Shown: positions 1,690 to 17,267 of the stretch, in pieces
Layout: each line of letters opens with the position of its first letter
Position numbering within the stretch: position 1 is the stretch's first letter
Virus record (IMG/VR): IMGVR_UViG_2778261534_000007
Coordinates: 1 to 40,456 of that record
Length of the DNA: 40,456 bases
DNA from: a virus
Lineage: Duplodnaviria; Heunggongvirae; Uroviricota; Caudoviricetes
Strand: one strand, 5' to 3'
Notes under the pieces: model-generated
The model's database searches: none
What the model was told of the DNA's origin: nothing
What the model saw: the letters and a program-made list of their open reading frames with translations, nothing else
Program-made: the position numbers and the translations under genes

Positions 1690-1704
1690 TGGTGTCCCCT
1701 GCAG
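1690..1704 (-). other. Prophage attachment-site core (attR); 15-bp copy of the 3' end of tRNA-Arg (argW)
   Basis: TGGTGTCCCCTGCAG is the reverse complement of CTGCAGGGGACACCA, the 3' acceptor end of E. coli argW as I recall it. It lies 74 bp beyond the torI stop, where the phage-host junction is expected. Confidence 0.6.
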
Positions 1705-1777
1705 ACATCTACTTGAGGCGGCAGGGGATTGATTGGAATGGTGTTTTTTAGGTGTGAGAAATATTTTACCCGCTATT

Positions 1778-1978
1778 TTACCCATTGGCGCGGCTTAAGA
1801 GCTTATTTTTGAATTCACAATGGTCACGATATAACCATCTTGCTCGCCCGTGGATAACTTTGGCTTTTGGCAGGTCGCCGGACTTAATCCGGTCGTAGAT
1901 GAAGGTTTTACCAAAGCCAGTATCGGCCATGATGAATTTCAAATCAACCAGGGAATCAGGCTGTAGTTCGTGTTGCAT
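1778..1978 (-). CDS. torI: Excisionase / recombination directionality factor, TorI-like (66 aa)
   Basis: 66-aa winged-helix Xis-like protein (FGKTFIYDRIKSGDLPKAKVIHGRARWL); position adjacent to attR as in KplE1, where torI and intS sit at opposite prophage ends. Confidence 0.7.
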   Translation of the reverse strand: MQHELQPDSLVDLKFIMADTGFGKTFIYDRIKSGDLPKAKVIHGRARWLYRDHCEFKNKLLSRANG

Positions 1979-1997
1979 GAGTGCTATCTCCGAATAG

Positions 1998-2013
1998 GGA
2001 ATCGAACCTGCAA
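1998..2013 (-). other. 16-nt tRNA-Arg T-arm-derived segment upstream of torI
   Basis: Minus-strand TTGCAGGTTCGATTCC is an exact 16-nt match to the argW T-stem/loop as I recall it; chance occurrence in 40 kb is roughly 1e-5. Confidence 0.5.
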
Positions 2014-2023
2014 ATCAGGTAAT

Positions 2024-2044
2024 AAAAAACCGCCATCAGGCGGC
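2024..2044 (-). terminator. Putative intrinsic terminator downstream of the 99-aa Cys-rich gene
   Basis: Minus-strand hairpin CCGCC-TGAT-GGCGG followed by TTTTTTATT. Confidence 0.4.
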
Positions 2045-2086
2045 TTGGTGTTCTTTCAGTTCTTCAATTCGAATATTGGTTATGTC

Positions 2087-2386
2087 TTATTCGATGCGTA
2101 CTCCTGGTATTTCGCCTTTTGAAATGGCTAAGTCATAAATTTGCGCAGCACTATACCCATCTCGCATCCATGAATCTAAGGCGCGAATAGCCTCGCTACG
2201 CTTTTTATCTTCTCTTTCATTTTTGATATCAACGAGGACATCAACGCAATTAAGGCATATGTGGATTTTGTCCTTACATTCGATCATGGCGGCTTTACCA
2301 TGATTTCCGCCACACAGTGAGCATAAATCTTCAGGGTCTGGCTGGTATTTCTGTAACGTTAAAGGGTTGAATGTTGAACAGGCCAT
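2087..2386 (-). CDS. Hypothetical Cys-rich (zinc-finger-like) phage protein, ~99 aa
   Basis: ORF with GGAG RBS 6 nt upstream of the ATG at 2386; CSLCGG...CLNC motif pairs. Confidence 0.55.
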   Translation of the reverse strand: MACSTFNPLTLQKYQPDPEDLCSLCGGNHGKAAMIECKDKIHICLNCVDVLVDIKNEREDKKRSEAIRALDSWMRDGYSAAQIYDLAISKGEIPGVRIE

Positions 2387-2442
2387 AATCATCTCCATAA
2401 AACAAAACTCGCCGTAGCGAGTTCAGATAAAAGAAATCCGCA

Positions 2443-3243
2443 TTAAGCGGCGTCGGTGAATTCAAATAAAAAACCGGCTTGCGCCGGCTCTCTCATCTTT
2501 CTGTCTACCCATGCTGATATCGATGGTGGGTGCACCTTTTCAATAGCTGCGCGAAGTACAGCTGTACGTGCCAGTTTGTCGGTAATCTCAGGAAATCGCT
2601 TCTCTGTCTTCGGTACGTTAACAGCAACATTAGTAGAATCCGCACTGGCGAACGGATACATACCAAGAACTCTCACGTCGAGCATTCGAAGACCATGAAT
2701 TTTCACTTTCAAATTACGATTGATATAAAGCTCAGTGAAAACTTCATCCATTCTCTGTTCCCACCATTTAGAGCGTATGTGCCTGTGTGGGCCGCAGCAT
2801 CCAATCGCCACCCATTCAAATTTGCCAGAAAGGCGTAAAAGACGTTCAATTGATTCGTCGGTATGCCAGACCGGAACCGCTTTTGATTTTAGCCAATCAG
2901 GAACCAACTCAATCTGCTCGTCGTTTTCTGCCTCTGTCCCTTCGATAACGTCAGGTATAAGAAACCATTCAATTCTGCTGAACCACTTCCCAACAAAGTC
3001 GTAGAATTTTGCTCGTCTCTTACTCCAGTCTACCGGAGTGCCTTTCTTTAATGCTTTCATCCAGTCGCTAAAAGCGCCGTTATCAAGGCGTATATCACAA
3101 GGGAACATGGCAATCTTTTTCATCTGCTCTGGTCTGGCAAATGAAACAAAAGCCCCACCATCACGGTAAAGGGCTTTAATCAGCATATCTGTAGGGGCAT
3201 GCTCATCCCCCCATATTGGGCTGCCGTGAAAGTGGATGGTCAT
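2443..3243 (-). CDS. Hypothetical early-left accessory protein, 266 aa
   Basis: Long ORF in the early-left operon; family not recognised by inspection. Confidence 0.6.
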   Translation of the reverse strand: MTIHFHGSPIWGDEHAPTDMLIKALYRDGGAFVSFARPEQMKKIAMFPCDIRLDNGAFSDWMKALKKGTPVDWSKRRAKFYDFVGKWFSRIEWFLIPDVIEGTEAENDEQIELVPDWLKSKAVPVWHTDESIERLLRLSGKFEWVAIGCCGPHRHIRSKWWEQRMDEVFTELYINRNLKVKIHGLRMLDVRVLGMYPFASADSTNVAVNVPKTEKRFPEITDKLARTAVLRAAIEKVHPPSISAWVDRKMREPAQAGFLFEFTDAA

Positions 3244-3285
3244 ATTATCCCCATATAAAAGAAATCCCCGCGAGTGCGAGGATTG

Positions 3286-3570
3286 TTATTCAGTGCCGAT
3301 ATTTACCTTTATCGCGAACACCTTTACCGGTTTATCGCCGAAGTGGGGATGTGTGATTGTCTTGATTTCATATCCGTCATACGGAACATCAATTCTTCGG
3401 CTGGAATCGTCGCGCTTCGGATATCCCTTTGTGATAATCAGGCGGTCATACTCCCGGAACATAATTCGCTTATTCCAGTAGTCATTACACAGGCGATACT
3501 CTTCTGTTTTCTCTCCGCGAATCATGGCATCGAAGTATTCACCTTTGACGGCAAGTTGCAGGTTAGCCAC
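3286..3570 (-). CDS. Small phage protein, ASCH/DUF3850-like (94 aa)
   Basis: N-terminal pattern LAVKGEYFDAMIRGEKTEEYR resembles the ASCH/DUF3850 signature (pattern-level inference). Confidence 0.5.
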   Translation of the reverse strand: MANLQLAVKGEYFDAMIRGEKTEEYRLCNDYWNKRIMFREYDRLIITKGYPKRDDSSRRIDVPYDGYEIKTITHPHFGDKPVKVFAIKVNIGTE

Positions 3571-4096
3571 GGTTAACCTCCTGCGGCGGTTCTGGTAGCG
3601 GCATCCAGTGAGTTATTTCATCGGCAAAGATATCTGAGTTAAGTTCCGTCCAACTATTCCAATACCCAGATTCATCCCACCATTTAACCTCGACATGCTC
3701 TCCGTCGGTCACTAACACATCAGCATACCCTTTCGGCATTCGCTCACTACAGCTTATCCAACCATCCGGAGTTACCGGAGAGTTGCCATTTACATCGAAG
3801 TTTGGCTCTGCGTCCTGAACCAGGAGGATGTAACCATTCTTGGCTGTATCAAGTTCTAACGCCTCGGTGACGGTGCCGAAATAGCGATTACCTAAATCAG
3901 CATCACAAGTGCTTACATCAATGGAAACTTCCATGCCTTCGATTAATTCTGGCAAGTTGTAAGTTTGGCTTACAGGCTCTGCTTCCAGCGATGCCAGCGC
4001 AATCCGTGCCAGTTCCATTTGTTCGCCACGAGTAAGTCCGTTATCAAGCGGATTTTTAATGAATAATTTGATACGTTCTTTGGTTATAGCGCTCAT
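3563..4096 (-). CDS. Phage protein with C-terminal DUF551-like domain (177 aa)
   Basis: C-terminal W-rich segment (VKWWDESGYWNSWTEL...HWMPLPEPP) typical of DUF551 in lambdoid early regions; 4-nt overlap with the upstream gene. Confidence 0.6.
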   Translation of the reverse strand: MSAITKERIKLFIKNPLDNGLTRGEQMELARIALASLEAEPVSQTYNLPELIEGMEVSIDVSTCDADLGNRYFGTVTEALELDTAKNGYILLVQDAEPNFDVNGNSPVTPDGWISCSERMPKGYADVLVTDGEHVEVKWWDESGYWNSWTELNSDIFADEITHWMPLPEPPQEVNRG

Positions 4097-4097
4097 A

Positions 4098-4592
4098 TCA
4101 CTCTCCTTTGGTGCGAATGCCAGTGGTACTCATTCTCCTGATTTCCCAGAGCACACGAGGAATACCACCGTTTCCGACCGGATCGCGTTTACTCCGCAGG
4201 GCGACGCTTGATTCCGCCCAGCTTTTTCTTGGAGGAAGCTCTTTCACACGAACAAAACCAGCTGCGCGAAGAGATGCTCCTGATTCATCTGCCTGGGTGT
4301 ACGTAATACAACGTTGATAACCCATAGCTTTTGCTGCCCGCCAGACAGCACCATAAAGCGCGCTGTTAGCGTTGCGTTCTCCTGTGGTACATGTGCGATT
4401 TACTTCAAGCGTTAATCCATCGTCCAAATGTCGTGCAACAGGTCGACCAGCTGTCGCCACACCTATCAATTCTCCGGCATTATTTCTCAGACCAATGCTG
4501 AATTTATGCCCCACTGGTGGTTTATTGTGTCGGTGGTGCTGTGCGATAAATTCCTGCGCCGCTTTCAGCGTTATAGGTGAAATGACCATCAC
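4098..4592 (-). CDS. Hypothetical early-left accessory protein, 164 aa
   Basis: ORF translationally coupled to neighbours; family not recognised by inspection. Confidence 0.55.
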   Translation of the reverse strand: MMVISPITLKAAQEFIAQHHRHNKPPVGHKFSIGLRNNAGELIGVATAGRPVARHLDDGLTLEVNRTCTTGERNANSALYGAVWRAAKAMGYQRCITYTQADESGASLRAAGFVRVKELPPRKSWAESSVALRSKRDPVGNGGIPRVLWEIRRMSTTGIRTKGE

Positions 4593-5194
4593 TCAGACTC
4601 CTCCTTGATGCCAGCGGCGCGCTCGGCTTCACTTTGTTCCCAAAACCACTTGTGAAGCGCCATAAGCTTTTCGTCAATCGGTGCATATTTGCGATTAAAG
4701 TAGGCCTGAGCATCTTTCTCAGATTCGTCCGGTAATTCGCCAGGGCCAAACAGTGTGTTATAAATCCATGCCAGTCCGCTCTTAGCGTCGCCAGTTGCCT
4801 GCCATTCGATAATGGCAGCCTGCATGACCAGAATGTTTTTCCCGATTAATAGGTCCAGTTCTTTGTACCGGTTGCGGATGTATGCATTCTCGCTTTGTAA
4901 TTCAGCGTTTCGCTTCTCTGCTGCTTCCAGCTCATCCAGCAGCGCCAAGACGGTAGCCGGATTGGCTGCGGCGATGAATTCAGCATTGGCCTGCTGTTCC
5001 ATTTGGAAATCTTCATCGAAACCGCTTTCAGGATGCGCTCCTTCAATTCTGCAAATGGGAATATATCCAGCAACTTCACGATGAATTAGCGCATCATCAC
5101 CATCAAATCGGCCCTCTCCATATTCGAGCGACCACACACCACACGTTGCTTTTTCTGCCTTGGCACGCAGTACCTGATAGTCAATCTTGCTCAC
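4589..5194 (-). CDS. Ead/Ea22-like coiled-coil phage protein
   Basis: Central heptad/coiled-coil segment ([30 protein letters not shown]); likely GTG start at 5194 preceded by AAGGAGG. Confidence 0.55.
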
Positions 5195-5358
5195 TGGTTG
5201 CCTCCTTTGCGCCACATCGCATTCAGATATTTGTTTTGATTCACTGATGGAAAAGAATTTCTCTTAAGCAATTCCTCTCTCGATGGCATTGGCTTTACGC
5301 GTTGGCGAATAATCATTTCTGCCGGAAGAATGCCTGGATTGTATGCAAGTCCTCTCAT
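5191..5358 (-). CDS. Small hypothetical protein (55 aa), below the ORF-track size cutoff
   Basis: ATG at 5358 preceded by AAAGAGGAA RBS; stop overlaps the start of the next gene. Confidence 0.3.
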
Positions 5359-5374
5359 GGTAAATTCCTCTTTG

Positions 5375-5689
5375 TTAATTTATTCGTATGCCTGCTCTTT
5401 CTTCATCGAGTTTTTTTAGCTTGTATCGCATAGCTCTTACTGAATAAATTGAGCGGCAGGTTGCAATTGCTATTTCTTCTGCGGAGAACTTACCGAAAAG
5501 TGATACTTCGGCTCTTGTCCAGCGTCTTCCACGAAGTCGGCTAACAATGTCAGCGCCAATCCTTGTTGCTTTCGCCATTACTGCTTTTTCAGTCCTTTCC
5601 AGTTTTTCAGCGATAACTTCAACTGGCATTGTCGCCGCCACTTCGCGCAAGAAATCGACTTCCCATTTCTCCCATGGAGTCTTTTTCAT
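5375..5689 (-). CDS. Hypothetical phage protein, 104 aa
   Basis: ORF in operon context downstream of the RecT module. Confidence 0.5.
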
Positions 5690-5700
5690 AGGCGATACCG

Positions 5701-6189
5701 TTATTTGATAAGAAGTGAAGGTTTCCCAACTTTGAGTTGAGCACCGGGGATATTTATTCCTGCTTTTAGTTGGTGTTTGATTGCCAGTTTGTCGGCTTTA
5801 ATTGTCGTTTCAAACTCAACGTATTCAGGAGGAAGGGCGCTTGAGTCGATGATTTCTACAGTTTCTGACGGTTTGCGGATTGTTACCTGGTGAATACCTG
5901 CTCTAATCTTTTTCTTGCCAACCATTTCAAGCGATGAGGCTATATATGCCATAATGCTATCAATCTTATTTTGAATTACTGCTGCTCGTTCATTCAGTGA
6001 CTTTGCCTCGTCCTTGAGGCGTTCAGCATAACCAGATTCATTTTTAATAATGGCAAGAAGTTGCTCTATTTTATCGGTAAATTCTCCTTCCATGCCTTCT
6101 ATTGTGTCAGCAATCATCTCTGGTTCTAAATCTGAATCCATCAATTTTGCGTATTCATTGGCAATTTCATATAGTTTGCTCACTGGCAA
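5701..6189 (-). CDS. Recombination-associated protein, siphovirus Gp157-like (162 aa)
   Basis: Immediately downstream of and overlapping recT; acidic helical N-terminus; Gp157-family assignment is by resemblance and synteny. Confidence 0.5.
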   Translation of the reverse strand: MPVSKLYEIANEYAKLMDSDLEPEMIADTIEGMEGEFTDKIEQLLAIIKNESGYAERLKDEAKSLNERAAVIQNKIDSIMAYIASSLEMVGKKKIRAGIHQVTIRKPSETVEIIDSSALPPEYVEFETTIKADKLAIKHQLKAGINIPGAQLKVGKPSLLIK

Positions 6190-7069
6190 CCTCCAGTTTC
6201 GCTTTGCATTCTATGTAAATGGCTTGTATGTTCTGCTGCAATTTCATTCCAGATGTCAGGCGATATGCTTCTGCAAAATATCTCTTCAAATCATCCATGT
6301 TTTCAGACTGAGCCATTTCATCACAAAGAAGTTGTGCTTTATCCGTTATTTCCTGCTGGCGTTTCCGTTCATCTTCGCGGATATCTTCCTCTGATTTGTG
6401 CGGCATAACTGGTTCCTGATGCATACCTTCATCTTCGTTAAGCAGGTGAATGGCATTATCCAGTCGCTGGGCTTTAGGCCAGTATTTGCTGGCGCGTTTA
6501 ACTATTGTTTTACGCGCCATCTCTTCCCAGAATGTCTTCCACGGTCCATTCTTTGCCTTGCTCGTTGCTTCCACAGCTTTAATTTCTGCCAGACTCATTT
6601 CTTCAGTGAGGTAGTCACCATCTGCTGTTTTAACCGTACAATAACCACCAACAATAGAGCCTCGCTCACCAAATGCGTTGTATTTGTGGGTTGGTGCTGA
6701 ATCAAGGCCGTTTGATTCATAGGTGTCGTTTGAGTACACCAGTTTGCATTGCCCCCACTTAATTGATCCTGTCGATTGCGCAAGATGAAGTAATCCCATG
6801 TAACTGATATCAAGGCAAACCATGCCGTCGCGAGGAACCAGATAAGCCAGTTTGCTGGCCGGGTTTAAGGTGATGCCGATCGCCGCAACATTGATGATGG
6901 CGTTCTGTGCGCTGGTTGGATTTGCCAGTGCCGTTTTAGCCAGGTAATCATTTTTCTGGAAATACTGAATTGCAAACTGGCTTTCCTTAGCCCATGTCAC
7001 CGTCTGTTCAGTCAATGCTCCGCAGAATAACTGCTCCTGCTGTTTAACGAATTCAACGATATTGCTCAT
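6167..7069 (-). CDS. recT: RecT-family single-strand annealing recombinase (300 aa)
   Basis: RecT-family similarity across the length (NVAAIGITLNPASKLAYLVPRDG...); located in the position of lambda bet. Confidence 0.8.
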   Translation of the reverse strand: MSNIVEFVKQQEQLFCGALTEQTVTWAKESQFAIQYFQKNDYLAKTALANPTSAQNAIINVAAIGITLNPASKLAYLVPRDGMVCLDISYMGLLHLAQSTGSIKWGQCKLVYSNDTYESNGLDSAPTHKYNAFGERGSIVGGYCTVKTADGDYLTEEMSLAEIKAVEATSKAKNGPWKTFWEEMARKTIVKRASKYWPKAQRLDNAIHLLNEDEGMHQEPVMPHKSEEDIREDERKRQQEITDKAQLLCDEMAQSENMDDLKRYFAEAYRLTSGMKLQQNIQAIYIECKAKLEVASEQTI

Positions 7070-7377
7070 GCAGCTTCTCCAAAAATGTGTCTGCGTTTAA
7101 ATATTGCGAAGGCATATTCAGCCTTAACTCTTTCGGTTATTGCATCCCAGAACCATTCAGCGGCTTTTTCCTGATAGTTACAGTCATCATCTTCCAGCCA
7201 GTCGATAGCGTCCTTAGTGTGTTCATCTGGTTTATATGAGCGAAGCATTTCGCTTATTGGGTCGCAACGTTTGCAGAGGCGATCAACTTCACTGTTAATT
7301 CGTTCGTAATCTTCATCAGTAAAACTTGCGATTATTTGCGATATTTCACGCTTATCATTCAGAGTCAGAATCATCAT
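7066..7377 (-). CDS. Hypothetical acidic phage protein upstream of recT (103 aa)
   Basis: ORF overlapping the recT start by 4 nt; acidic, Trp-rich; no family recognised. Confidence 0.5.
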   Translation of the reverse strand: MMILTLNDKREISQIIASFTDEDYERINSEVDRLCKRCDPISEMLRSYKPDEHTKDAIDWLEDDDCNYQEKAAEWFWDAITERVKAEYAFAIFKRRHIFGEAA

Positions 7378-7458
7378 CTTTCTCCTGTTCTTTGTGCTGA
7401 TTGAGCATTTTGTTCATCTGACGAATGAATTCTTCGTCTGACCAGTTATCTGTAAAAC

Positions 7459-7581
7459 TCATTTCCTGCGATACCACGGAAGGTTGATAGCTGATTTCAT
7501 CGCTTTATTTGCTTCAAGCCACATTTTTGAATCACCAATAAATCTGGCTATTACTGCTTTGTTTTGTGCCGCACGAAGCAT
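7459..7581 (-). CDS. Kil-like small protein (40 aa), below the ORF-track cutoff
   Basis: ATG 14 nt after the cIII stop; translation MLRAAQNKAVIARFIGDSKMW... resembles my recollection of lambda Kil (IATFIGDEKM). Confidence 0.4.
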   Translation of the reverse strand: MLRAAQNKAVIARFIGDSKMWLEANKAMKSAINLPWYRRK

Positions 7582-7595
7582 CTGGTGATTAATGG

Positions 7596-7730
7596 CTATT
7601 TCATTGCGCATAACGCCTCCAGTTGTTTCTTTGCTGCTCTAATTAATTGTTTAACTCGGCGTGATAATTCAGATTCGTGCGGGTAGAAAGCGGACATGAC
7701 GCCGCTACCCGCGAGCTGAAAGTGCATCAT
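7596..7730 (-). CDS. cIII: cIII-like protease inhibitor (44 aa)
   Basis: MMHFQLAGSGVMSAFYPHESELSRRVKQLIRAAKKQLEAL resembles lambdoid cIII; AAGGAG RBS before the ATG at 7730. The longer listed ORF (to 7835) runs through a terminator hairpin and is rejected. Confidence 0.7.
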   Translation of the reverse strand: MMHFQLAGSGVMSAFYPHESELSRRVKQLIRAAKKQLEALCAMK

Positions 7731-7793
7731 GGGTAACTCCTTATATTTGATTGCATAACGAAAACGCCTCGAGTGAAGCGTTATTGGTATGCA

Positions 7794-7820
7794 TATAAAA
7801 AGGCCCTCACACTGGAGGGC
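7794..7820 (-). terminator. Intrinsic terminator (tL1-like) between the 156-aa gene and cIII
   Basis: Minus-strand hairpin GCCCTC-CAGTGT-GAGGGC followed by CTTTTTAT. Confidence 0.5.
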
Positions 7821-7924
7821 AAAGAAGATTTTCAATAATCAGAACAAGTCGGCTCCTGTTTAGTTACGAGCGACATTGCTCCGTGTATTCACTCGTTGGA
7901 ATGAATACACAGTGCTTATTTGTA

Positions 7925-8395
7925 CTAATAAAATACCCAATTTTCTGTTTCTTGGTTGTGTCCAAAGTTATATTCAATATCTGGTGTTGATGTATCAATA
8001 TTCTTCATCCCATCAACAAGAGTTGATACAACAGCCAAATCTTGTTTGATTCTCATTAAATGGTATTTCTTCCGGCGCAATAAACTTTCAATGGCAAGTT
8101 TCTTCGTTGGGAATGCAAAAGATCTTTCTGCATTTTTTGCTACTTTCTTAATTGCATATCTATTTCTCTTTTGTTTCCATTCCTGTAACCACTGATTTGG
8201 TGCTGGTTTAAAATTAACAATCCAATGCGCAGGAACCAACCATGCATAATGCTCTGTCTGATGAAAAGCTATATATTGAAGTGCGAATATTTTGATTCCA
8301 TCTTCTTCAACTGTCGCCTGGAATCTCCAGAAAACAGGCATTCCATCATGTTCAGTTTCTGATTCAGGAAAAGGTACGCTCCATGATTTTGTCAT
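7925..8395 (-). CDS. Hypothetical AT-rich accessory protein (156 aa) in the N-cIII (sieB/ral) slot
   Basis: ORF with markedly lower GC than the flanking N and cIII genes; followed by a 9-bp-stem inverted repeat (7883..7910); no family recognised. Confidence 0.6.
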   Translation of the reverse strand: MTKSWSVPFPESETEHDGMPVFWRFQATVEEDGIKIFALQYIAFHQTEHYAWLVPAHWIVNFKPAPNQWLQEWKQKRNRYAIKKVAKNAERSFAFPTKKLAIESLLRRKKYHLMRIKQDLAVVSTLVDGMKNIDTSTPDIEYNFGHNQETENWVFY

Positions 8396-8403
8396 ATCTC
8401 ACC

Positions 8404-8730
8404 TCAAATAAGTGGCTTGCTGCCTAATTTCATTTTCTGGCGACCAACACAAGTCACACCCATTTCACTGCGTGGCTTGCTGTACCATGTGCGCTGATTC
8501 TTGCGCTCAATACGTTGCAGGTTGCTTTCAATCTGTTCGTGGTATTCAGCCAGCACCGTAAGGTCTATCGGATTCAGTGCGCTTTCTACTCGTGATTTCG
8601 GTTTGCGATTCAGCGAGAGAATTGGGCGGTTAACTGGTTTTGCGCTTACCCCAACCAACAGGGGATTTGCTGCTTTCCATTGAGCCTGTTTAGCTGCGCG
8701 GCGTTCGCGGCGGCGTGTTTGTGCATCCAT
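8404..8730 (-). CDS. N: Antitermination protein N (lambda-type)
   Basis: Near-identity to lambda N as recalled (MDAQTRRRERRA.KQAQWKAANPLLVGVSAKPVNRPILSLNRKPKSRVESALNPIDLTVLAEYH...). Confidence 0.9.
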   Translation of the reverse strand: MDAQTRRRERRAAKQAQWKAANPLLVGVSAKPVNRPILSLNRKPKSRVESALNPIDLTVLAEYHEQIESNLQRIERKNQRTWYSKPRSEMGVTCVGRQKMKLGSKPLI

Positions 8731-8998
8731 CTGGATTCTCCTGTCAGTTAGCTTTGGTGGTGTGGTGGCTGGTAGTCTAGCTCCAGCTTGTTGAGTCTCA
8801 TTCGGAGGGGTATAACCGGCACCCCAGCGATTTTTCCATGCGACAACGTGCGCGTTATGGCGGCCTTATCGCCCGCGGCTCCCCATCTCGTCCACGCTAT
8901 TGCTAGCGTTGGGAGCGCTTCACCGCTCAACAGTAGGTAAGCACTTGCCAGTGACTAGCTGGCTTCACCACACACCAAAGCCTTCTGCTTTGAATGCT

Positions 8999-9029
8999 GC
9001 CCTTCTTCAGGGCTTAATTTTTAAGAGCG
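8999..9029 (-). promoter_or_regulatory. nutL (boxA CGCTCTTAA + boxB GCCCTGAAGAAGGGC)
   Basis: Reverse complement reads CGCTCTTAAAAATTAAGCCCTGAAGAAGGGC, the lambda nutL sequence; boxB at 8999..9013, boxA at 9021..9029. Confidence 0.8.
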
Positions 9030-9068
9030 TCACCTTCATGGTGGTTAGTGCGTCCTGCTGATGGCTAA

Positions 9069-9097
9069 ATAGTACGATTTGTACTTTATCGAGTCAA
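9069..9097 (-). promoter_or_regulatory. PL-like early leftward promoter (-35 TTGACT, 17-bp spacer, -10 TACTAT) with flanking operator-like TTTGTA/TACAAA repeats
   Basis: Sigma70 consensus-like hexamers with 17-bp spacing upstream of nutL on the minus strand. Confidence 0.55.
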
Positions 9098-9160
9098 TAC
9101 AAAATGTTCTAAATATAATTAGTTTTTTATAACGTTTTGTATTTAATGGGTTTATAATTT

Positions 9161-9190
9161 GGAAAAAGAAAACCCGACGCTAAGGTCGGG
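9161..9190 (-). terminator. Intrinsic terminator downstream of cI
   Basis: Minus-strand hairpin CCCGAC-CTTAGC-GTCGGG followed by TTTTCTTTTTCC. Confidence 0.55.
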
Positions 9191-9222
9191 TTATTGTTGT
9201 GTGTTTTAGAGTGGTGAGGCTG

Positions 9223-9882
9223 TTAACTAAATGTCTCTTCAGGCCACTGGCTGGCGATAACTTTCCCTACTACGGAACAGCTATCATTGCATGGAATCAT
9301 TGGATATTGCGGGTTTAGTGGCTGTAGGAACACCTGACCGCTATCCCTGATCAGTTTCTTGAAGGTAAACTCGTCACCACCAAGTCTGGCTATGCAGAAA
9401 TCACCTGGCTCAACAGCCTGCTCGGGGTCAACGAGAATTAACATCCCGTCAGGAAAGCTTGGCTTCGATCCTGTTGGCGCGGTCATGGAATTACCTTCAA
9501 CTTCAAGCCAAAACGCACAATCACTGGCTTTTTTGGTTGTGCTTACCCATCTCTCCGCATCACCTTTGGTAAAGGTTCTAAGCTCAGGCGAGAACATCCC
9601 GGCCTGAACATGAGAAAAAACAGGGTACTCATATTGTTTTTTAACGGGGGCAGATGAGTATTCGCCAACAGGTGAAAATGTACCGTCGTGGTTGAATGAG
9701 ACGTTATCAATACCAAGGTATTTAAACACCACACCAATCTCGTCAAGAGATGGATGACGAGATCCGCGCAACCAGTGACCAATTCCACCCTGCGTCATAC
9801 CAAGCTCTTCAGCTAACTTCTCTTGAGTTATGCCGAGCTCTTTCATTCTGGATCTAGCCAGTTCATACCATTTCATTTTCAT
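9223..9882 (-). CDS. cI: CI-type prophage repressor (HTH N-domain plus LexA/S24-like autocleavage C-domain)
   Basis: C-terminal ~150 aa match lambda cI as recalled ([22 protein letters not shown]...[48 protein letters not shown]...); N-terminal HTH ([23 protein letters not shown]) differs from lambda. Start at 9882 or 9876; the listed ORF start (9924) is a TTG extension. Confidence 0.85.
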
Positions 9883-9938
9883 ACCCTTATTATTACGCTC
9901 TGTACTAAAACCATCCATGCACAAGATGTATTTTTTGT

Positions 9939-9967
9939 TTGCATTCTAAAAGTACATATCGTATTAT
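9939..9967 (+). promoter_or_regulatory. PR-like promoter (-35 TTGCAT, 17 bp, -10 TATTAT) within the cI-cro operator region
   Basis: Consensus-like hexamers 27 nt upstream of the cro ATG; GTAC-containing operator-like repeats nearby. Confidence 0.5.
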
Positions 9968-9993
9968 TGTTTCATGGTTACTATGGAGGGCAT

Positions 9994-10209
9994 ATGAGCA
10001 ACCTACGAAAATATCGAGAGTCACTGAATATCTCTCAAACAACACTTGCTAAGGCAGTTGGATGCACACAGGGAGCTATCGGACATTGGGAATCTGGTCG
10101 TCGCTTCCCAGACCTTAAAACATGCCGTGCTCTTGTTGAGTGCCTAAACAAGTTAGGCGCAAAAGTCAGTCTTGATGACGTGTTCCCGCCGGAACACAAA
10201 GCCGCTTAA
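9994..10209 (+). CDS. cro: Cro-like HTH repressor (71 aa)
   Basis: Small HTH protein (ISQTTLAKAVGCTQGAIGHWESG) divergent from cI; GGAGGG RBS; the listed ORF from 9823 is a TTG-initiated extension. Confidence 0.75.
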   Translation: MSNLRKYRESLNISQTTLAKAVGCTQGAIGHWESGRRFPDLKTCRALVECLNKLGAKVSLDDVFPPEHKAA

Positions 10210-10217
10210 GACATTCC

Positions 10218-10249
10218 CGCTCTTACACATCCCAGCCCTGAAAAAGGGC
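10218..10249 (+). promoter_or_regulatory. nutR (boxA CGCTCTTAC + boxB GCCCTGAAAAAGGGC)
   Basis: Matches the lambda nutR boxA/boxB consensus directly downstream of cro. Confidence 0.8.
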
Positions 10250-10325
10250 ATTACCAGAAACAAATCTCTATGGTTTTGCGTTTCTTTGCGAAGCCAACTC
10301 TATCTAATCATTAAGGAAATTATCT

Positions 10326-10607
10326 ATGGGTACTATTGCAACTAAAAGCAAGAAAGCGGCTCGCATCGAGTCAGCCTTGCTGAACAAACTGGCACTGATG
10401 GGGCAGAAGACATTCGCTCGAGCGATGGGGGTTCCTGAATATCAGGTAAGCCGATGGAAGAATGGTTTCTTCTCGCAGGTAAGCATGATGCTTGCTGTTC
10501 TGGAATACGGAATCGAAGACGATGAAATGGCTGAATTGACTAAGCGGCTTGCCGATTACCTGACAAAAGAAAAAGCCCCGAAGAACGGCGAATTCTTCGA
10601 GGCCTGA
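10326..10607 (+). CDS. cII: CII-like transcriptional activator (93 aa)
   Basis: Similarity to lambda cII as recalled (RIESALLNK.A..G......A.GV...Q.SRWK......S.LAVLE.G..DD.MA.L). Confidence 0.8.
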   Translation: MGTIATKSKKAARIESALLNKLALMGQKTFARAMGVPEYQVSRWKNGFFSQVSMMLAVLEYGIEDDEMAELTKRLADYLTKEKAPKNGEFFEA

Positions 10608-10641
10608 TGTAGAAAGACTGGATCAATCCACAGGAGTAATT

Positions 10642-11286
10642 ATGACATACGAAAATGACAAATTCCAGGTTCTGAAGAGCATGAAGGTGCCAGATGATTT
10701 TAAATCAAATGGCTTTGTTTATGTGCTTTCGAATGAGTGCATGCCGGGAATTTATAAGATTGGGATGACTAAGCATTCACCAGAAGTTAGGGCTAAAGAA
10801 ATTTCAGCCTCTACTGGCGTTCCTAAGCCATTTAAGGTGATAGCAGCCTTTCATTCAAATAATCCCGCATCAGATGAAAAACTTATTCATAAAGCCTTTG
10901 CAAAAGAGAGGCTTAGTGATAATCGAGAGTTTTTCAAGCTTGAAGATAATGATCTTTATGAATCTCTAAATGAAATAAGGGCGCTGGTTGGCCCTGAAAG
11001 AAATGGCGAGACGGCAGAATACGCAATTTACGACTCATTCATTTCTTTTCGCCATGAAAATGAGCTTGATCTTAATGAGGAGCTTATAGAGCAAGGTCTG
11101 GGTAGTGTAGTTGGTCATCTTCCTGCGGTGAAAAATTTCCTTATTCGCGCCGGAATTGATTACGCGAAGCAACTGATAAGCAAATATAACTCATCGATAG
11201 TTATTAATACAGATGGCAGTGTGGTGATGGTTAAGTCTCTTGAAGCCCAATGCTTTGATGCGGAGGTTGGAAATGAGCCTTGCTGA
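10642..11286 (+). CDS. T5orf172 / GIY-YIG-like domain protein (214 aa), inserted between cII and O
   Basis: N-terminal motif GFVYVLSNECMPGIYKIGMT (GIY...YIG-like spacing) with a downstream conserved Arg and acidic residues; AGGAG RBS; more AT-rich than its neighbours; 3' end overlaps the O start by 14 nt. Confidence 0.6.
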   Translation: MTYENDKFQVLKSMKVPDDFKSNGFVYVLSNECMPGIYKIGMTKHSPEVRAKEISASTGVPKPFKVIAAFHSNNPASDEKLIHKAFAKERLSDNREFFKLEDNDLYESLNEIRALVGPERNGETAEYAIYDSFISFRHENELDLNEELIEQGLGSVVGHLPAVKNFLIRAGIDYAKQLISKYNSSIVINTDGSVVMVKSLEAQCFDAEVGNEPC

Positions 11287-12115
11287 AGTATTTTACCTGC
11301 CGAAGAGTGAACCTGTTGAACAGGAGCGAAGAGTGGCTGATATCGATGATGGTTACACCAGATTCGCTAACGAGCTGCTGGAAGCTATCGCAAGTGCCGA
11401 TTTAACCGCTCGCCAGTTGAAAGTTATGCTGGCCTACGTCCGGAAAACATATGGATTCAATAAGAAAACAGATCGAATAGCCGATGAGCAAATTGCTCAG
11501 TTAACAGGACTGTCAAGGCAGAATGTTAACAAGGCTAAAAAAGAACTGATTTCAATGAATTGCCTGTTTATGGATGGAAATCAAATCGGTGTAAACAGTG
11601 AGGTATCTGCGTGGCAATTCAGCAAGTGTCTCCAAGTTAGCAACTTTGTCTCGAAGTTAGAGACAAAAAATGTCTCCAAATTAGAGACACTCAATGTCTC
11701 GAAGTTAGAGACACACAAAAGACATTCTTTAAAGACAAAAGAAAATATTAATAAACCCCCTATATCCCCCAAAAAAGTTTCTCAGAAGTTCGACCCGCTA
11801 GAAACAGAGTTGCCTGATTGGTTATCAGCAGAAACATGGTTGTCGTGGGTTACCTATCGCAAGGAGATAGGTAAGTCGATCAAGTCTAAGCAAAGTGTCA
11901 CTCAGGCTATCAACGTTCTAAGCAGAAGTCTGGAGAAGGGATATACACCTGAAGAAATTATAAACCAGAGCATCGCCAGTGGTTGGCAGGGGATTTTTGA
12001 GCCCAAGACTCCAAAGGGGAAACCTCAACCGAGGCCGCAGCATCGAGCTATGCAGGAAAACTTTGCCACCAAAGATTACGGACAAACTGAAATGCCTTCA
12101 TGGGCGCAGGAGTGA
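11273..12115 (+). CDS. Replication initiation protein (lambda O-like) containing the origin iterons
   Basis: GGAGG RBS before the ATG at 11273; N-terminal replication-protein-O-like region; internal iterons encode repeated VSKLET; followed by a translationally coupled helicase loader. Confidence 0.8.
   Translation: MSLAEVFYLPKSEPVEQERRVADIDDGYTRFANELLEAIASADLTARQLKVMLAYVRKTYGFNKKTDRIADEQIAQLTGLSRQNVNKAKKELISMNCLFMDGNQIGVNSEVSAWQFSKCLQVSNFVSKLETKNVSKLETLNVSKLETHKRHSLKTKENINKPPISPKKVSQKFDPLETELPDWLSAETWLSWVTYRKEIGKSIKSKQSVTQAINVLSRSLEKGYTPEEIINQSIASGWQGIFEPKTPKGKPQPRPQHRAMQENFATKDYGQTEMPSWAQE
11627..11713. repeat. Replication origin iterons: three 19-bp TGTCTC-N7-GAGACA repeats at 24-bp spacing plus a degenerate fourth, followed by an AT-rich stretch
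   Basis: Directly visible: TGTCTCGAAGTTAGAGACA (11647..11665), TGTCTCCAAATTAGAGACA (11671..11689), TGTCTCGAAGTTAGAGACA (11695..11713), degenerate copy at 11627..11645; AT-rich 11714..11780. Confidence 0.7.
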
Positions 12116-12117
12116 AC

Positions 12118-12963
12118 ATGACGCTGGATGAAAAGATCTCCCAACTGGAGAAAAAACTTGCAGAATTGAGTTCTCCGCCAATTGCTATCGAGCATACATC
12201 TGTAGAAATTGGCACTGGCATCTGTGAAAAACATGGTGAGTTTGAGCAGCGTAACCGTTACTCGACTGGGCCAATTAAGTTTGCCTCAAGACCTAGCGAA
12301 TGCCCGGAATGCATGAGAGATGAGCTTATTCGGCTACAGGCAGAGAAGATTAAAATCGACGAGGAATCACGTAAGCGCAATGTCGAGTTTCTGTTGAATA
12401 ATCTTGATATTCCTGAACGATTCAAGGGTTGCACACTACAGAACTACGAGCCAGTCAACGACGATGCAAAGAGAGTGCTCAGGGTGTGTCAGGCATACGC
12501 CAGCAAATGGCCTGAGAGGTTACAGAAAGGCGGTGGGCTGGTTATGTGTGGAAAGCCTGGTACTGGAAAGAATCATCTTGCACTGGCTATCGCCCGGCAC
12601 GCAATTACGGAACATCAAAGCTCAGCTATTTTCACAACGGCGCTGAAAATTGCCAGAGAATATAAATCAACATGGTCGAAAAACTCCACCCGCACAGAGG
12701 ATGAAGTGATCCGACAGTTCACTAAACCTGACCTGCTAATTATCGATGAGGTTGGTGTGCAGTTTGGAAGCGAGGCGGAAAAGATGATCATGTTCGAAAT
12801 CATCAACACCCGCTACGAGCGCATGAAGCCAACAATCCTGATTAGCAACCAGAGCAAAGATGAACTGTCTGCATTCATTGGTGAGCGTGTTATTGACAGG
12901 ATGAATGATGGCGGCGGGTGCACTCTTGCGTTTACATGGGATAGTTACAGGAGCAGATCGTGA
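12118..12963 (+). CDS. DnaC/IstB-like AAA+ helicase loader (replication protein)
   Basis: Walker A CGKPGTGKNHLALAIA and Walker B LLIIDEVG; GGAG RBS before the ATG at 12118; N-terminal Cys/His cluster. Confidence 0.8.
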   Translation: MTLDEKISQLEKKLAELSSPPIAIEHTSVEIGTGICEKHGEFEQRNRYSTGPIKFASRPSECPECMRDELIRLQAEKIKIDEESRKRNVEFLLNNLDIPERFKGCTLQNYEPVNDDAKRVLRVCQAYASKWPERLQKGGGLVMCGKPGTGKNHLALAIARHAITEHQSSAIFTTALKIAREYKSTWSKNSTRTEDEVIRQFTKPDLLIIDEVGVQFGSEAEKMIMFEIINTRYERMKPTILISNQSKDELSAFIGERVIDRMNDGGGCTLAFTWDSYRSRS

Positions 12964-13250
12964 CTGGAAAAGAAATCATCCTGGAATATCTGAAAACTCA
13001 TGAACAATTCTCCCCACATGAATTAGCACTGATCACCGGAATACCAAATAACAGAATCGCTCAAGCAGCAAGGCATATGGTGAAACAAGGACATTTGAGT
13101 GTTGTTGAGCGTAAGTGGAAGACGGTTATTTATGCAAAACGCAAAGTGAAGAAGGAGCCAATTAAAAGAAATCCAGATGGTACGGGGTGGGGATATGCAA
13201 ATCCAATGACGGCGTTTATTAATAGGGCGCTTATTGAGGTAAGGCAATGA
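12960..13250 (+). CDS. Ren-like protein (96 aa)
   Basis: GTG start coupled to the loader stop with AGGAG RBS; size, position after the replication genes and N-terminus MTGKE resemble lambda Ren (from memory). Confidence 0.45.
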   Translation: MTGKEIILEYLKTHEQFSPHELALITGIPNNRIAQAARHMVKQGHLSVVERKWKTVIYAKRKVKKEPIKRNPDGTGWGYANPMTAFINRALIEVRQ

Positions 13251-13275
13251 CAATCTACATCACTGAGCTAATAAC

Positions 13276-13307
13276 AGGCCTGCTGGTAATCGCAGGCCTT
13301 TTTATTT
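13276..13307 (+). terminator. Intrinsic terminator (tR2-like) between replication and nin regions
   Basis: Hairpin AGGCCTGC-TGGTAATC-GCAGGCCT followed by TTTTATTT. Confidence 0.65.
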
Positions 13308-13323
13308 GGGGGAGAGGGAAGTC

Positions 13324-13506
13324 ATGAATCTGGACGAGCAAGATGCACAAACTATTAGCTCATACATAAGGGCATCAAGACCAGATTACAAAGGTCCGGT
13401 ATTCGTAGATTTATCTCGCCTTGAAGAGATTTACATGTGGAAAGCAAGGTTACTTACGCATTTTGTTATTCGAACGATGACTAGCAACATTAAAAAACCA
13501 ATGTAA
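13324..13506 (+). CDS. Hypothetical nin-region protein (60 aa)
   Basis: ATG at 13324 after a GGGGGAGAGGGAA purine-rich RBS; the listed ORF start (13306) is TTG. Confidence 0.4.
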   Translation: MNLDEQDAQTISSYIRASRPDYKGPVFVDLSRLEEIYMWKARLLTHFVIRTMTSNIKKPM

Positions 13507-13521
13507 CTGGAAGAGGTGAAT

Positions 13522-13737
13522 ATGAGCACACTCGCAGACCTTATTCATGCCGATATGGCTGAAGATGGAGCAAGGCGTAATAGGTACTGGAAATCATCGA
13601 GACTTCCAGTTTGTGAAAGATTCAACCACAGGCCAAAACCAAAACGTAGCCGACGAGACAAAGTGTTGAAAAAACTCATGCAAATTAACATGGCTGGTTT
13701 TGTCAGATTCGTGAGTGAAACGACTAACGGGGATTGA
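13522..13737 (+). CDS. Hypothetical basic nin-region protein (71 aa)
   Basis: AAGAGG RBS 5 nt before the ATG at 13522; Arg/Lys-rich. Confidence 0.5.
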   Translation: MSTLADLIHADMAEDGARRNRYWKSSRLPVCERFNHRPKPKRSRRDKVLKKLMQINMAGFVRFVSETTNGD

Positions 13738-13738
13738 T

Positions 13739-14050
13739 ATGGACGAATCAAGAAAGCAGTTTGAGGAATACGTTGCCAAAAAATTGAGATTACCATTCGA
13801 GATGATAACCGAGGCAAGAAATGGTGATAGGTACTTTGCATTTTCAAGCATGGATATTCGTCACTCCTTAAATGAGTGGTGGGCTTTATGGCAGGCATCG
13901 CGAGCAGCTATCGAGATTGAGTGTCCTGGAAAAAGAGAGCGTGAGGCATTTTCTACCGATTTCGAGGATGGGGTCACATTTGGTTATAACGACGCAATTA
14001 GTGAATGCGAAGGACTGATTCGCGCTGCTGGAGTCAAAGTGAAGGAGTAA
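13739..14050 (+). CDS. Hypothetical nin-region protein (103 aa)
   Basis: GGGGA RBS; ATG at 13739 immediately after the upstream stop; stop adjacent to the NinB RBS. Confidence 0.5.
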   Translation: MDESRKQFEEYVAKKLRLPFEMITEARNGDRYFAFSSMDIRHSLNEWWALWQASRAAIEIECPGKREREAFSTDFEDGVTFGYNDAISECEGLIRAAGVKVKE

Positions 14051-14052
14051 CG

Positions 14053-14463
14053 ATGAAGCAAACAATCTTCCTCCGAACTAAGCAACAACAGCAAGCTGCA
14101 ATAAATGCCATCCTCGCAACACCACTCGATAAAGACAAGCCAGTCACCATCCGCATTACTGACTACAAGCGCAACCTTGACCAGAACGCAAAATTTCACG
14201 CGATGCTGGCGGATATCGCACGTCAGGTTCAATGGTGCGGCAAATGGTTAAAACCGGAACAATGGAAGGTTTTGTTGATCAGCGGTCATGCAGTGGCAAC
14301 AAAGCAGGAAGCTGATGTTTTGCCCGGGCTTGAAGGCGAATACGTCAACATTCGCGAAAGCAGCGCGCAGATGAGCGTGAAGCGCATGGCAAGCCTGATT
14401 GAGTACACGACAGCATGGGCTATTGGTCAGGGTGTCAGATTTACCGACAGGAGGTACGAATGA
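14053..14463 (+). CDS. ninB: NinB recombination protein
   Basis: Similarity to lambda NinB as recalled; GGAG RBS before the ATG at 14053. Confidence 0.8.
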
Positions 14464-14636
14464 GACGACAGCGACGAAGTTTCACCGACATCATCTGCGA
14501 AAACTGCAAATACCTTCCAACGAAACGCTCCAGAAATAAACGCAAGCCAATCCCGAAAGAATCTGACGTAAAAACCTTCAACTACACGGCTCACCTGTGG
14601 GATATCCGGTGGCTAAGACATCGTGCGAGGAAATGA
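14460..14636 (+). CDS. ninD: NinD-like small zinc-binding protein (58 aa)
   Basis: [20 protein letters not shown]... matches lambda NinD as recalled; AGGAGG RBS; start overlaps the NinB stop. Confidence 0.7.
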
Positions 14637-14638
14637 CA

Positions 14639-14986
14639 ATGGATTATTCACAGTTAAGTGATTTTGAAATTAACAAGCGAGTATTTAAAGCGATAGTAGG
14701 GGCAAAACCATTAGGTTATCCGCACAACGCAGATGGACGGTCTGTCGGCAATGAATCAAATGGTAATTATCGATGGTACGACTACTGCAATAATCCTGAA
14801 GATGCAGAGCCGATTATCGTAGAGAACAGAATTGGCATTATTCCAGCGCCAGAAAATGGATTATGGAAGGCAGCGCATAGAAAAGTTGGCAGTGATAGTA
14901 CCCCATATCATATGACTCAAGATGAAAATCCCCTCCGCGCCGCCATGATTGTCTTTCTCATGATGCAGGACGCCAATAATGCTTAG
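14639..14986 (+). CDS. Hypothetical nin-region protein (115 aa)
   Basis: ATG at 14639 with a GAGG RBS; occupies the ninE position but is larger than lambda NinE. Confidence 0.5.
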   Translation: MDYSQLSDFEINKRVFKAIVGAKPLGYPHNADGRSVGNESNGNYRWYDYCNNPEDAEPIIVENRIGIIPAPENGLWKAAHRKVGSDSTPYHMTQDENPLRAAMIVFLMMQDANNA

Positions 14987-15155
14987 CCCATTCCAATCCC
15001 TTCAATACCAGAAAGAAAGCGTTGAGCGAGCTTTAACGTGCGCTAAATGCGGTCAGAAGCTGCATGTGCTGGAAGTTCACGTGTGTGAGCACTGCTGCGC
15101 AGAACTGATGAGCGATCCGAATAGCTCAATGTACGAGGAAGAAGACGATGGCTAA
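14979..15155 (+). CDS. ninF: NinF-like protein (58 aa), below the ORF-track cutoff
   Basis: Manual translation [58 protein letters not shown] matches lambda NinF as recalled; overlaps the NinG start. Confidence 0.65.
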
Positions 15156-15759
15156 ACCAGCGCGAAGACGATGTAAAAATGATGAATGTCGGGAATGGTT
15201 TCACCCTGCATTCGCTAATCAGTGGTGGTGTTCTCCAGAGTGTGGAACCAAGATAGCACTCGAACGACGAAGCAAAGAACGCGAAAAAGCGGAAAAAGCA
15301 GCAGAGAAGAAACGACGACGAGAGGAGCAGAGACAGAAAGATAAACTGAAGATTCGAAAACTCGCCTTAAAGCCCCGCAGTTACTGGATTAAACAAGCCC
15401 AACAAACCGTAAACACCTTCATCAGAGAAAGAGACCGCGACTTACCATGTATCTCGTGCGGAACGCTCACGTCTGCTCAGTGGGATGCCGGGCATTACCG
15501 GACAACTGCTGCGGCACCTCAACTCCGATTTGATGAACGCAATATTCACAAGCAATGCGTGGTGTGCAACCAGCACAAAAGCGGAAATCTCGTTCCGTAT
15601 CGCGTCGAACTGATTAACCGCATCGGGCAGGAAGCAGTAGACGAAATCGAATCAAACCATAACCGCCATCGCTGGACTATCGAAGAGTGCAAGGCGATCA
15701 AGGCAGAGTACCAACAGAAACTCAAAGACCTGCGAAATAGCAGAAGTGAGGCCGCATGA
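15148..15759 (+). CDS. ninG: NinG / Rap recombination endonuclease
   Basis: Similarity to lambda NinG with conserved Cys clusters ([10 protein letters not shown]...CSPEC; CISCG...CVVCNQHK). Confidence 0.8.
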
Positions 15760-15962
15760 CGTTCTCAGTAAAAACCATTCCAGACATGCTCGTTGAAGCA
15801 TACGGAAACCAGACAGAAGTAGCACGCAGACTGAAATGTAGTCGCGGTACGGTCAGAAAATACGTTGATGATAAAGACGGGAAAATGCACGCCATCGTCA
15901 ACGACGTTCTTATGGTTCATCGCGGATGGAGTGAAAGAGATGCGCTATTACGAAAGAATTGA
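15756..15962 (+). CDS. ninH: NinH-like protein (68 aa)
   Basis: Size, position and sequence resemble lambda NinH. Confidence 0.7.
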
Positions 15963-16605
15963 TGGCAGCAAATACCGAAATATTTGGGTAGTTGGCGATC
16001 TGCACGGATGCTACACGAACCTGATGAAAAAACTGGAGACGATAGGATTCGACACCAAAAAAGACCTGCTTATCTCGGTTGGCGATTTGGTCGATCGCGG
16101 TACAGAGAACGTCGAATGCCTGGAATTAATCACATTCCCCTGGTTCAGAGCTGTACGTGGAAACCATGAGCAAATGATGATTGATGGCTTATCAGAGCGT
16201 GGAAACGTTAATCACTGGCTGCTTAATGGCGGTGGCTGGTTCTTTAATCTCGATTACGACAAAGAAATTCTGGCTAAAGCTCTTGCCCATAAAGCAGATG
16301 AACTTCCGTTAATCATCGAACTGGTGAGCAAAGATAAAAAATATGTTATCTGCCACGCCGATTATCCCTTTGACGAATACGAGTTTGGAAAGCCAGTTGA
16401 TCATCAGCAGGTAATCTGGAACCGCGAACGAATCAGCAACTCACAAAACGGGATCGTGAAAGAAATTAAAGGCGCGGACACGTTCATCTTTGGTCATACG
16501 CCAGCAGTGAAACCACTCAAGTTTGCCAACCAAATGTATATCGATACCGGCGCAGTGTTCTGCGGAAACCTAACATTGATTCAGGTACAGGGAGAAGGCG
16601 CATGA
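15940..16605 (+). CDS. Ser/Thr protein phosphatase (lambda PPase / NinI-type), 221 aa
   Basis: Metallophosphatase motifs GDLHG, GDLVDRG, GNHE; near-identity to the lambda phosphatase as recalled; start at MRYYERI (15940). Confidence 0.9.
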
Positions 16606-17225: not shown

Positions 17226-17267
17226 CAGCATGATTGCCACGGATGGCAACATATTAACGGCATAATA

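Follow-up and report, generated by a model that had tools for sequence, protein, structure and literature searches.

The closest described system is the N leader of phage lambda. PMC5725501, drawing on Wilson et al. (1997, 2002), states that translation of N is repressed by N and the Nus factors when these are bound at NUTL, about 200 nt upstream; the RNA between NUTL and N is highly structured, and RNase III modulates this repression. The hairpin processed by RNase III in lambda (Kameyama et al. 1991; Wilson et al. 1997, 2002; via PMC5725501) has the same position behind pL as the segment described here, and nutL, the lower helix, the Shine-Dalgarno sequence (SD) and the N start are identical. 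A second system with the same order of elements is the rrn leader, i.e., boxB-boxA-boxC followed by an RNase III leader-trailer helix around 16S rRNA (PMC10250234, PMC2724277). The rrn helix encloses a functional rRNA, and the likeness with the N leader is an analogy, not a sequence homology.

The window is the whole stretch of DNA analysed, i.e., 40,456 nt of the IMG/VR record IMGVR_UViG_2778261534_000007. It carries, on the minus strand, an N antitermination gene (8730..8404) encoding a lambda-N-like protein of 108 aa with a lambda-type arginine-rich motif. All the leader features given below lie on the same strand. The promoter pL is of the sigma-70 type, TTGACT-17-TACTAT (9097..9069), with its −35 box TTGACT at 9097..9092 and its −10 box TACTAT at 9074..9069. 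The transcript probably starts at 9062 (A of ATCAGCAGG), judging from homology with the pL start annotated in the HK544 and CL707 records. The nutL site (9029..8999) is composed of boxA CGCTCTTA (9029..9022), the spacer AAAATTAA and the boxB hairpin GCCCTGAAGAAGGGC (9013..8999); boxA and spacer are identical to the lambda nutL oligonucleotide (PMC2724277). At the other end, the ribosome-binding region of N (SD GGAG, 8741..8738; ATG, 8730..8728) is just outside the closing helix described below.

From boxB to ATG (8998..8731) the leader has exactly 268 nt, vs. 158 nt in lambda J02459. The initial annotation was right in describing it as enlarged, lambda-like at both ends, different in its centre and GC-rich. 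The match to lambda extends over about 31 nt behind boxB and resumes for about 37 nt ahead of ATG, with 2 mismatches at most; in a pairwise alignment with the pL-N region the centre does not align with J02459. G and C make up 55.6% of the leader and 57.4% of its centre, vs. 46.7% GC in the window as a whole and 51% in the leader of lambda. By blastn against phage records, the full 268-nt form is found in Sf6, Sf101, HK544, HK446, HK633, mEp213, mEp043, vB_EcoP-720R6 and CurroJimenez_Bas106. These nine leaders are 98.6-99.4% identical to the window over 359 nt, and their interior is 100% identical. Lambda, 434 and others match in the flanks only, and CL707, Louie and vB_EcoP-683R2 have a third, different leader centre. 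In the GenBank records of the Sf6/HK544 group, nothing is annotated between nutL and N except one «hypothetical protein».

The window has the same cassette as the leaders of the Sf6/HK544 group, but carries a change in N and another in the 5' stem strand. Codon 13 of N (8692..8694) specifies Ala for Glu inside the boxB-binding arginine-rich motif (E13A), i.e., RRAAKQ vs. RRAEKQ in the 14 commonest N alleles listed. Position 25 of the leader (8974) carries a G->U change in the 5' stem strand, by which the bulge is shifted; this leader variant is otherwise found in L105 only.

The RNA of the leader is predicted to form, after pL and nutL, one long-range helix of 3 bp plus 16-17 bp that would close off an interior of 198 nt. 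In the window, 8987..8966 pairs with 8767..8745. The outer extension of 3 bp (CAG 8987..8985 with CUG 8747..8745) is predicted to pair and is part of the covariation set. The base helix is made of the 5' strand GGCUUUGGUGUGUGGUG (8982..8966) and the 3' strand CACCACACCACCAAAGCU (8767..8750), with one nucleotide bulged. The lower 8 bp and the flanking sequence are those of lambda. The upper helix is GGUGUGGUG/CACCACACC here vs. GGUGUGUG/CACACACC in lambda. The length of the closing helix, its bulge and the predicted accessibility of SD and AUG are the same in the two leaders; at the apex, 90 nt of lambda give way to 198 nt of unrelated sequence (8965..8768, 57% GC). This c268 interior is predicted to fold into a multi-helix junction, unlike the lambda interior. 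In lambda, the 5' strand GGUGUGUG is presumably the historical «boxC», and we take the RNase III cuts to lie inside the closing helix, at about +88 and +197; the RNase III site of the present leader is a putative one.

N loci were collected from four sources: (i) GTDB genomes (mostly lambda contamination); (ii) IMG/VR, searched by protein; (iii) IMG/VR, searched by a conserved DNA pattern around SD and ATG; (iv) metagenomes, searched by this same pattern. Loci in which both boxB and the N start could be recognised form the survey set; there are 270 of them, and 196 are distinct. They sort into exactly seven cassette families: c110 (leader of 110 nt, 63 distinct sequences), c158, i.e., the lambda type (157-160 nt, 51), c268 (267-269 nt, 40), c198 (198 nt, 21), c172 (172 nt, 17), c186 (186 nt, 2) and c183 (183 nt, 2). 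The c268 interior is unrelated to the six other types. More generally, local alignment against shuffled controls detects no homology among the cassette interiors (z < 2.5), except for c198 and c186, which have both end hairpins in common. The metagenome scan yielded no new family. An eighth cassette, with a leader of 128 nt, occurs in L347 and three other loci, only before an N of the Stx type; it has the same closing-helix architecture as the others, with the upper stem GGGGUGAAUGCAG... / ...CUGUAUUCACC. Each cassette is at least 98% conserved, but this conservation is uninformative because the flanking N is equally conserved.

Thus the c268 segment is not an insertion but a replacement of the hairpin apex, and one of at least seven non-homologous, interchangeable fillers. 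The idea of a structured insertion in the N leader holds in so far as the segment lies within the structured part of the leader, which in lambda is RNase III-sensitive and autoregulatory, and is longer and different; it has to be replaced by that of an allelic exchange among seven alternatives. Neither the fine-scale polymorphism of the cassettes nor their spread across N specificity groups is apparently annotated in any record examined.

Every family is predicted to have the same long-range helix, i.e., CAG...CUG (3 bp), a 2x2 internal loop and 16-17 bp, in most cases with a single A bulged out. Three quite different sequences make up its upper half: GGGUGUG(G)UG/CA(C)CACACC, GAUUGGAUG/CAUCCAAUC and AGUAGCGCG/CGCGUUACU. 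Covariation was evaluated on an alignment of 22 distinct arm pairs, with 20 pairs in the named structure; column shuffles and slid 3' partners served as controls. In these arm pairs 95.7% of the helix cells are paired, and changes on both sides occur at 8 of the 20 helix pairs. Double-change cells number 49, vs. 13.5±2.8 in column shuffles, and none of 500 shuffles reaches 49. The covariation score is 0.359 vs. 0.108 in shuffles. When the 3' partners are slid by 1-3 columns, just 29-37% of the cells are paired. These counts are strong evidence that the helix itself is selected.

The same separation between helix and interior is seen in the folding energies. The z values against shuffles range from −2.0 to −5.7 for closed hairpins and from +0.2 to −1.4 for interiors alone, c110 being at −2.2. 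For the whole leader of the window z = −3.5, a significant value because of one long-range helix which is found in lambda too. The several potential stems mentioned in the initial annotation are present, but, taken by itself, the interior of 198 nt does not fold better than dinucleotide-shuffled sequence (MFE −68.0 kcal/mol vs. −65.7±4.1, z −0.57), and its antisense strand gives z −0.66. These stems are what any sequence of 57% GC would give. Only the closing helix shows signs of selection, and the GC-rich filler has no detectable signal of its own.

The cassettes reassort freely with their neighbours. One identical N allele of 108 aa is found behind seven cassette types (two lambda-type subclusters, later merged into c158, being counted apart here). 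Nine pL/operator (immunity) types can be told apart by the sequence ahead of nutL, and seven of the nine are found with c268. Module boundaries of lambdoid mosaics likewise show non-homologous alternatives between near-identical flanks, which reassort with the neighbouring sequences. Unlike the usual lambdoid modules, the present one is a sub-genic, non-coding segment of 43-198 nt, and its joints are the two strands of one RNA helix; exchange as a matched pair is therefore required.

The c268 cassette, together with its upper stem, also occurs in leaders with other nut sites and other antiterminators, as found by searching IMG/VR with a 30-nt core of the interior. Behind other nut sites, the c268 hairpin with an interior about 100% identical is present in L299, L302, L303, L307, L310, L313, L315 and L332 (IMG/VR) and in L300 and L109. 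Where boxB is GCGCUGACAAAGCGC, c268 is followed by the N of Stx-converting phages (127 aa). In L300, c268 lies behind a third nut type and before an N that we take to be phage-21-like, and in L109 the boxB GCGCUGAAAAAGCGC and c268 go with a lambda-type N. Small ORFs occasionally replace N behind c268: L304 and L311 (IMG/VR) have a lambda-type nutL, the c268 hairpin and SD, then unrelated ORFs of 42 and 43 aa at the position of the N start. The lower stem reads GAACUUUGG/CCAAAGUUC instead of GGCUUUGG/CCAAAGCU in leaders of the Stx type, which is again a compensatory change. The cassettes before a Stx-type N are c172 with slight divergence (89 loci), c268 (10 loci) and the additional one of the 128-nt leader. 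The presence of c268 in leaders of the Stx and 21 types means that the hairpin is a portable module, independent of nut or N specificity.

The locus L309 (IMG/VR 3300045988_069239, ~6830..7200) contains in tandem the c268 hairpin, the initial five codons of a Stx-type N, fused to a second nut remnant, and the c172 hairpin. It looks like a recombination product in which one leader hairpin follows another.

An N gene of lambda, preceded by the unaltered lambda leader, was also found on short contigs of low coverage (L009-L024, L026, L027, L029, L030, L032-L035) from assemblies labelled Shewanella, Chromatium, Paenibacillus, Capnocytophaga, Pseudomonas, Desulfovibrio, Kitasatospora and others. 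The lambda N contigs in these assemblies are almost certainly contamination, e.g., size markers or spike-ins.

Among 5426 complete E. coli genomes, 882 carry this N 5' region and 60 carry c268. The context of c268 was inspected in two of the matches: one copy is full-length and directly upstream of N, the other is partial. The partial copy (H80; L006, E. coli P276M, NZ_CP044293.1 503215..503311) is a deletion endpoint in a decayed P22-like prophage: a truncated «packaged DNA stabilization protein» pseudogene is joined to the 3' half of the c268 interior, and N follows with neither nutL nor pL.

The effect of the interior on its surroundings was assessed by partition-function folding of pL transcripts, from +1 to codon 12 of N, with one transcript per cassette family. 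The probability of the boxB stem is 1.0 in six families and 0.69 in c183, and that of the base helix ranges from 0.92 to 1.0. The unpaired probability of SD is 0.32-0.34 in six families and 0.39 in c183; that of AUG is 0.39-0.43 in six families and 0.53 in c183. In these equilibrium predictions the interior has no influence on boxB, base helix or SD/AUG. The gap of 198 nt between the two helix strands could change the kinetics of co-transcriptional folding, which are outside equilibrium predictions.

The 268-nt leader is thus probably a lambda-type N-leader RNase III hairpin with a variable apical domain, regulated as in lambda. The closing helix would set the nutL RNA beside the SD of N and, by homology with lambda, may be the RNase III processing site. 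Such a helix would let the NUTL-bound N/Nus complex repress N translation, and a cut by RNase III would part NUTL from the N message, by which repression would be relieved. The c268 interior would be a passenger apical domain, exchanged among lambdoid phages by recombination that may take place in the conserved flanks, i.e., nutL and the 5' stem on one side, and the 3' stem, SD and N on the other. Since the interior is thermodynamically insulated by the helix in the folding predictions, regulation should work as in lambda. Cleavage by RNase III and N autoregulation are extrapolated from lambda to the c268 leader, and the neutrality of its interior is likewise something we infer; against such neutrality counts the fact that the shortest cassette has not taken over. 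An altered RNase III processing or N autoregulation, as proposed in the initial annotation, is not indicated: the putative RNase III helix is kept and covarying, and the predicted states of boxB, base stem, SD and AUG are unchanged by the cassette.

Another explanation, which we consider unlikely, gives the interior a function of its own. RNase III would free a multi-helix junction of about 200-220 nt whose first and last loops kiss, in the manner of a tRNA elbow. This RNA would act as a trans-acting sRNA, a decoy or a protein sponge, the seven cassettes being alternative payloads. The explanation comes from the hairpins at the two ends of the interior. In c268, the 5' hairpin GCCAG-CUAGUCA-CUGGC (8963..8947), directly after the 5' helix strand, has UAGUC in its loop, and the 3' hairpin GCUGG-AGCUAGACUA-CCAGC (8787..8768), which abuts the 3' helix strand, has GACUA in its loop, i.e., 5 bp of Watson-Crick complementarity between the loops (P 0.014-0.023). 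Independently of c268, the equivalent loops of c186 and c198 contain GCUGA/UCAGC (P 0.005-0.015). The stem of the 5' hairpin differs between these two families by a compensatory change (GCGC/GCGC vs. GAGC/GCUC), and their 3' hairpins differ by two wobble-preserving changes, pairing being kept through G-U. On the contrary, three of the six independent families have no loop complementarity. Complementarity in two of six at P of about 0.02 is expected in about 1% of cases by chance, which is suggestive but not compelling.

The tRNA-like aspect is most marked in the rare family c183. In L114 (IMG/VR 2541047875_000007), as in the other c183 loci, the c183 leader (~1027..1209 in L114) has at its 3' end GCUGG-UUCGACU-CCAGC-CACCACA-CCA, i.e., a T-arm with the canonical T-loop UUCGACU on the same 3' hairpin stem as c268, an acceptor-like strand of 7 nt and CCA. 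The 5' end, UGUGGUG-AA-GCUC-AACGGC-GAGC, comprises an acceptor-like strand and a D-arm-like hairpin with GG in its D-like loop; an extra arm of the class-II type is present too. However, Rfam gives c183 12-13.8 bits as tRNA/tmRNA (12 bits for the tmRNA match), vs. gathering scores of 47 and 84 (47 for tmRNA), and ARAGORN finds nothing. The T-loop consensus UUCRANY is present in c183 only. The c268 cassette shares with c183 the 3' hairpin stem of 5 bp and the acceptor-like strand of 7 nt, but its loop AGCUAGACUA has 10 nt and is not a T-loop, and c268 was rejected as a tRNA/tmRNA-like element. Unlike in the 3' domain of tRNA or tmRNA, the «CCA» of the cassette is base-paired inside the closing helix.

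The parallel with the rrn operon, where nut-like boxes come first and a structured RNA is then enclosed in an RNase III helix (PMC10250234), also speaks for a functional interior. Against it stand the searches for an autonomous signal. The stability of the interior is, as given above, no greater than that of shuffles on either strand. No Rfam family matches c268 at any threshold (gathering and permissive; window and leader alone). On five other cassette loci Rfam gives nothing relevant, apart from the sub-threshold match of c183 to the tmRNA 3' end. ARAGORN predicts no tRNA or tmRNA gene in the window or in 11 cassette loci, i.e., it is blank for all cassettes tried. No promoter- or terminator-like site is found inside 8768..8965 on either strand. 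Neither complementarity to the rest of the window nor repeats exceed chance; the longest complement, 11 nt, is at chance level. The 14 distinct leader variants of c268 differ by isolated SNPs only, the family being too uniform for covariation inside c268. In c172, the copies of lambda and Stx contexts have four fixed differences; two of them break predicted pairs and none is compensatory. The MFE structures of c172 in these two contexts differ by 48 base pairs, the base helix being untouched.

Accordingly c268 was rejected as an independent small-RNA gene: it has no promoter or terminator of its own, no known Rfam family, no excess stability and no covariation. The suggestion that the leader harbours a separate small RNA is not borne out, and RNase III excision itself would be the sole route to a discrete RNA from the interior. 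In an extended form of the explanation, rated lower still, the closing helix would be a general «excision frame» for RNase III, common to the pL leaders of lambda, Stx phages and 21-like phages, and the interiors, folded around kissing loops or a tRNA-like elbow, would be trans-acting payloads released earliest in infection or induction, each with a role of its own, e.g., as decoy of a host RNA-binding factor or of a defence system. The lambda-type hairpin with a variable, exchangeable apex is retained as the preferred reading.

It is very unlikely that the diversity of the cassettes is itself selected, e.g., as an escape from resident prophages or host defences that target, by sequence, the first phage transcript or the DNA, with the helix keeping regulation constant. 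Seven non-homologous sequences at one site between near-identical flanks, their free reassortment with N alleles and immunity types, their movement between N specificity groups and the fact that no family has displaced the others would all fit such a selection. The same pattern is nevertheless given by ordinary lambdoid mosaicism, with conserved flanks around an unconstrained segment. The cassette set is small and closed, the metagenome scan having yielded nothing further. We know of no such targeting system, and none was detected in this analysis.

There is hardly any case for a small protein encoded by the segment, either by a TTG ORF of 60 aa on the N strand (8930..8748, in a stop-free run of 68 codons) or by an antisense ORF. 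Frames of 54-68 codons are open on both strands, and a «hypothetical protein» is annotated here in one phage record (H19) and in a few database entries. The TTG ORF, however, has neither ATG nor SD, and it overlaps the 3' strand of the conserved helix. No open frame has a Pfam or PHROG match. A search of 5.8 billion proteins gave no more than 4 matches, of which two come from the same locus and two are short and partial (~31-32% of the query), one of the latter falling inside an E. coli DUF551 protein. Most annotators omit the ORF, and the other cassettes at the site share none.

A small MITE-like mobile element, with the helix strands as terminal inverted repeats, is as improbable as the small protein. 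The inverted repeat of 17 bp around a variable segment of 198 bp and the short direct repeats AGCTAGTC / AGCTAGAC near the segment ends recall such an element, but the direct repeats are there because of the complementary hairpin loops, and the inverted repeat corresponds to the functional helix, which lambda itself and all the families possess. All the full-length copies examined are in pL leaders, downstream of a nut site of lambda, Stx-phage or 21 type and upstream of an N gene or of a small ORF replacing N; the sole partial copy, among the two E. coli matches inspected for context, is the deletion endpoint mentioned above. An inversion switch was rejected, as no cassette is the reverse complement of another.

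The c268 leader is an unannotated variant of the known N-leader hairpin and not a new element, and its significance is modest. Natural variation maps selection here in a classic regulatory RNA: in seven cassettes and in three or more N specificity groups, a helix of about 20 bp is kept by compensatory changes, and the 43-198 nt inside it are freely replaceable wholesale. The pattern agrees with a model in which it is the helix, rather than the apical structure, that brings NUTL beside the ribosome-binding site and serves as the RNase III switch; the cassettes are ready-made natural swap constructs for testing this model. About 1% of the complete E. coli genomes (60/5426), Sf6 and several HK and mEp phages have this feature before N, where it is unannotated. 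If excised interiors were stable and functional, pL leaders would be a source of early phage sRNAs, which is put forward as a weak suggestion.

Between pL and the gene of a LexA/CI-like repressor (9924..9223, minus strand), the window contains a bidirectional terminator-like hairpin AACCCGACCTTAGCGTCGGGTT with T-runs (9171..9192), at the place where «Timm» is annotated in HK544 and CL707; this hairpin has weak, sub-threshold matches to Rfam sRNAs only. As a whole, the window represents a lambdoid (pro)phage that is P22/Sf6-like and mosaic: of its first 25 kb (1..25000), any one phage record covers 43% at most, and the best partial matches to that part are vB_EcoP-683R2, Dewey, IME10 and Kapi1.
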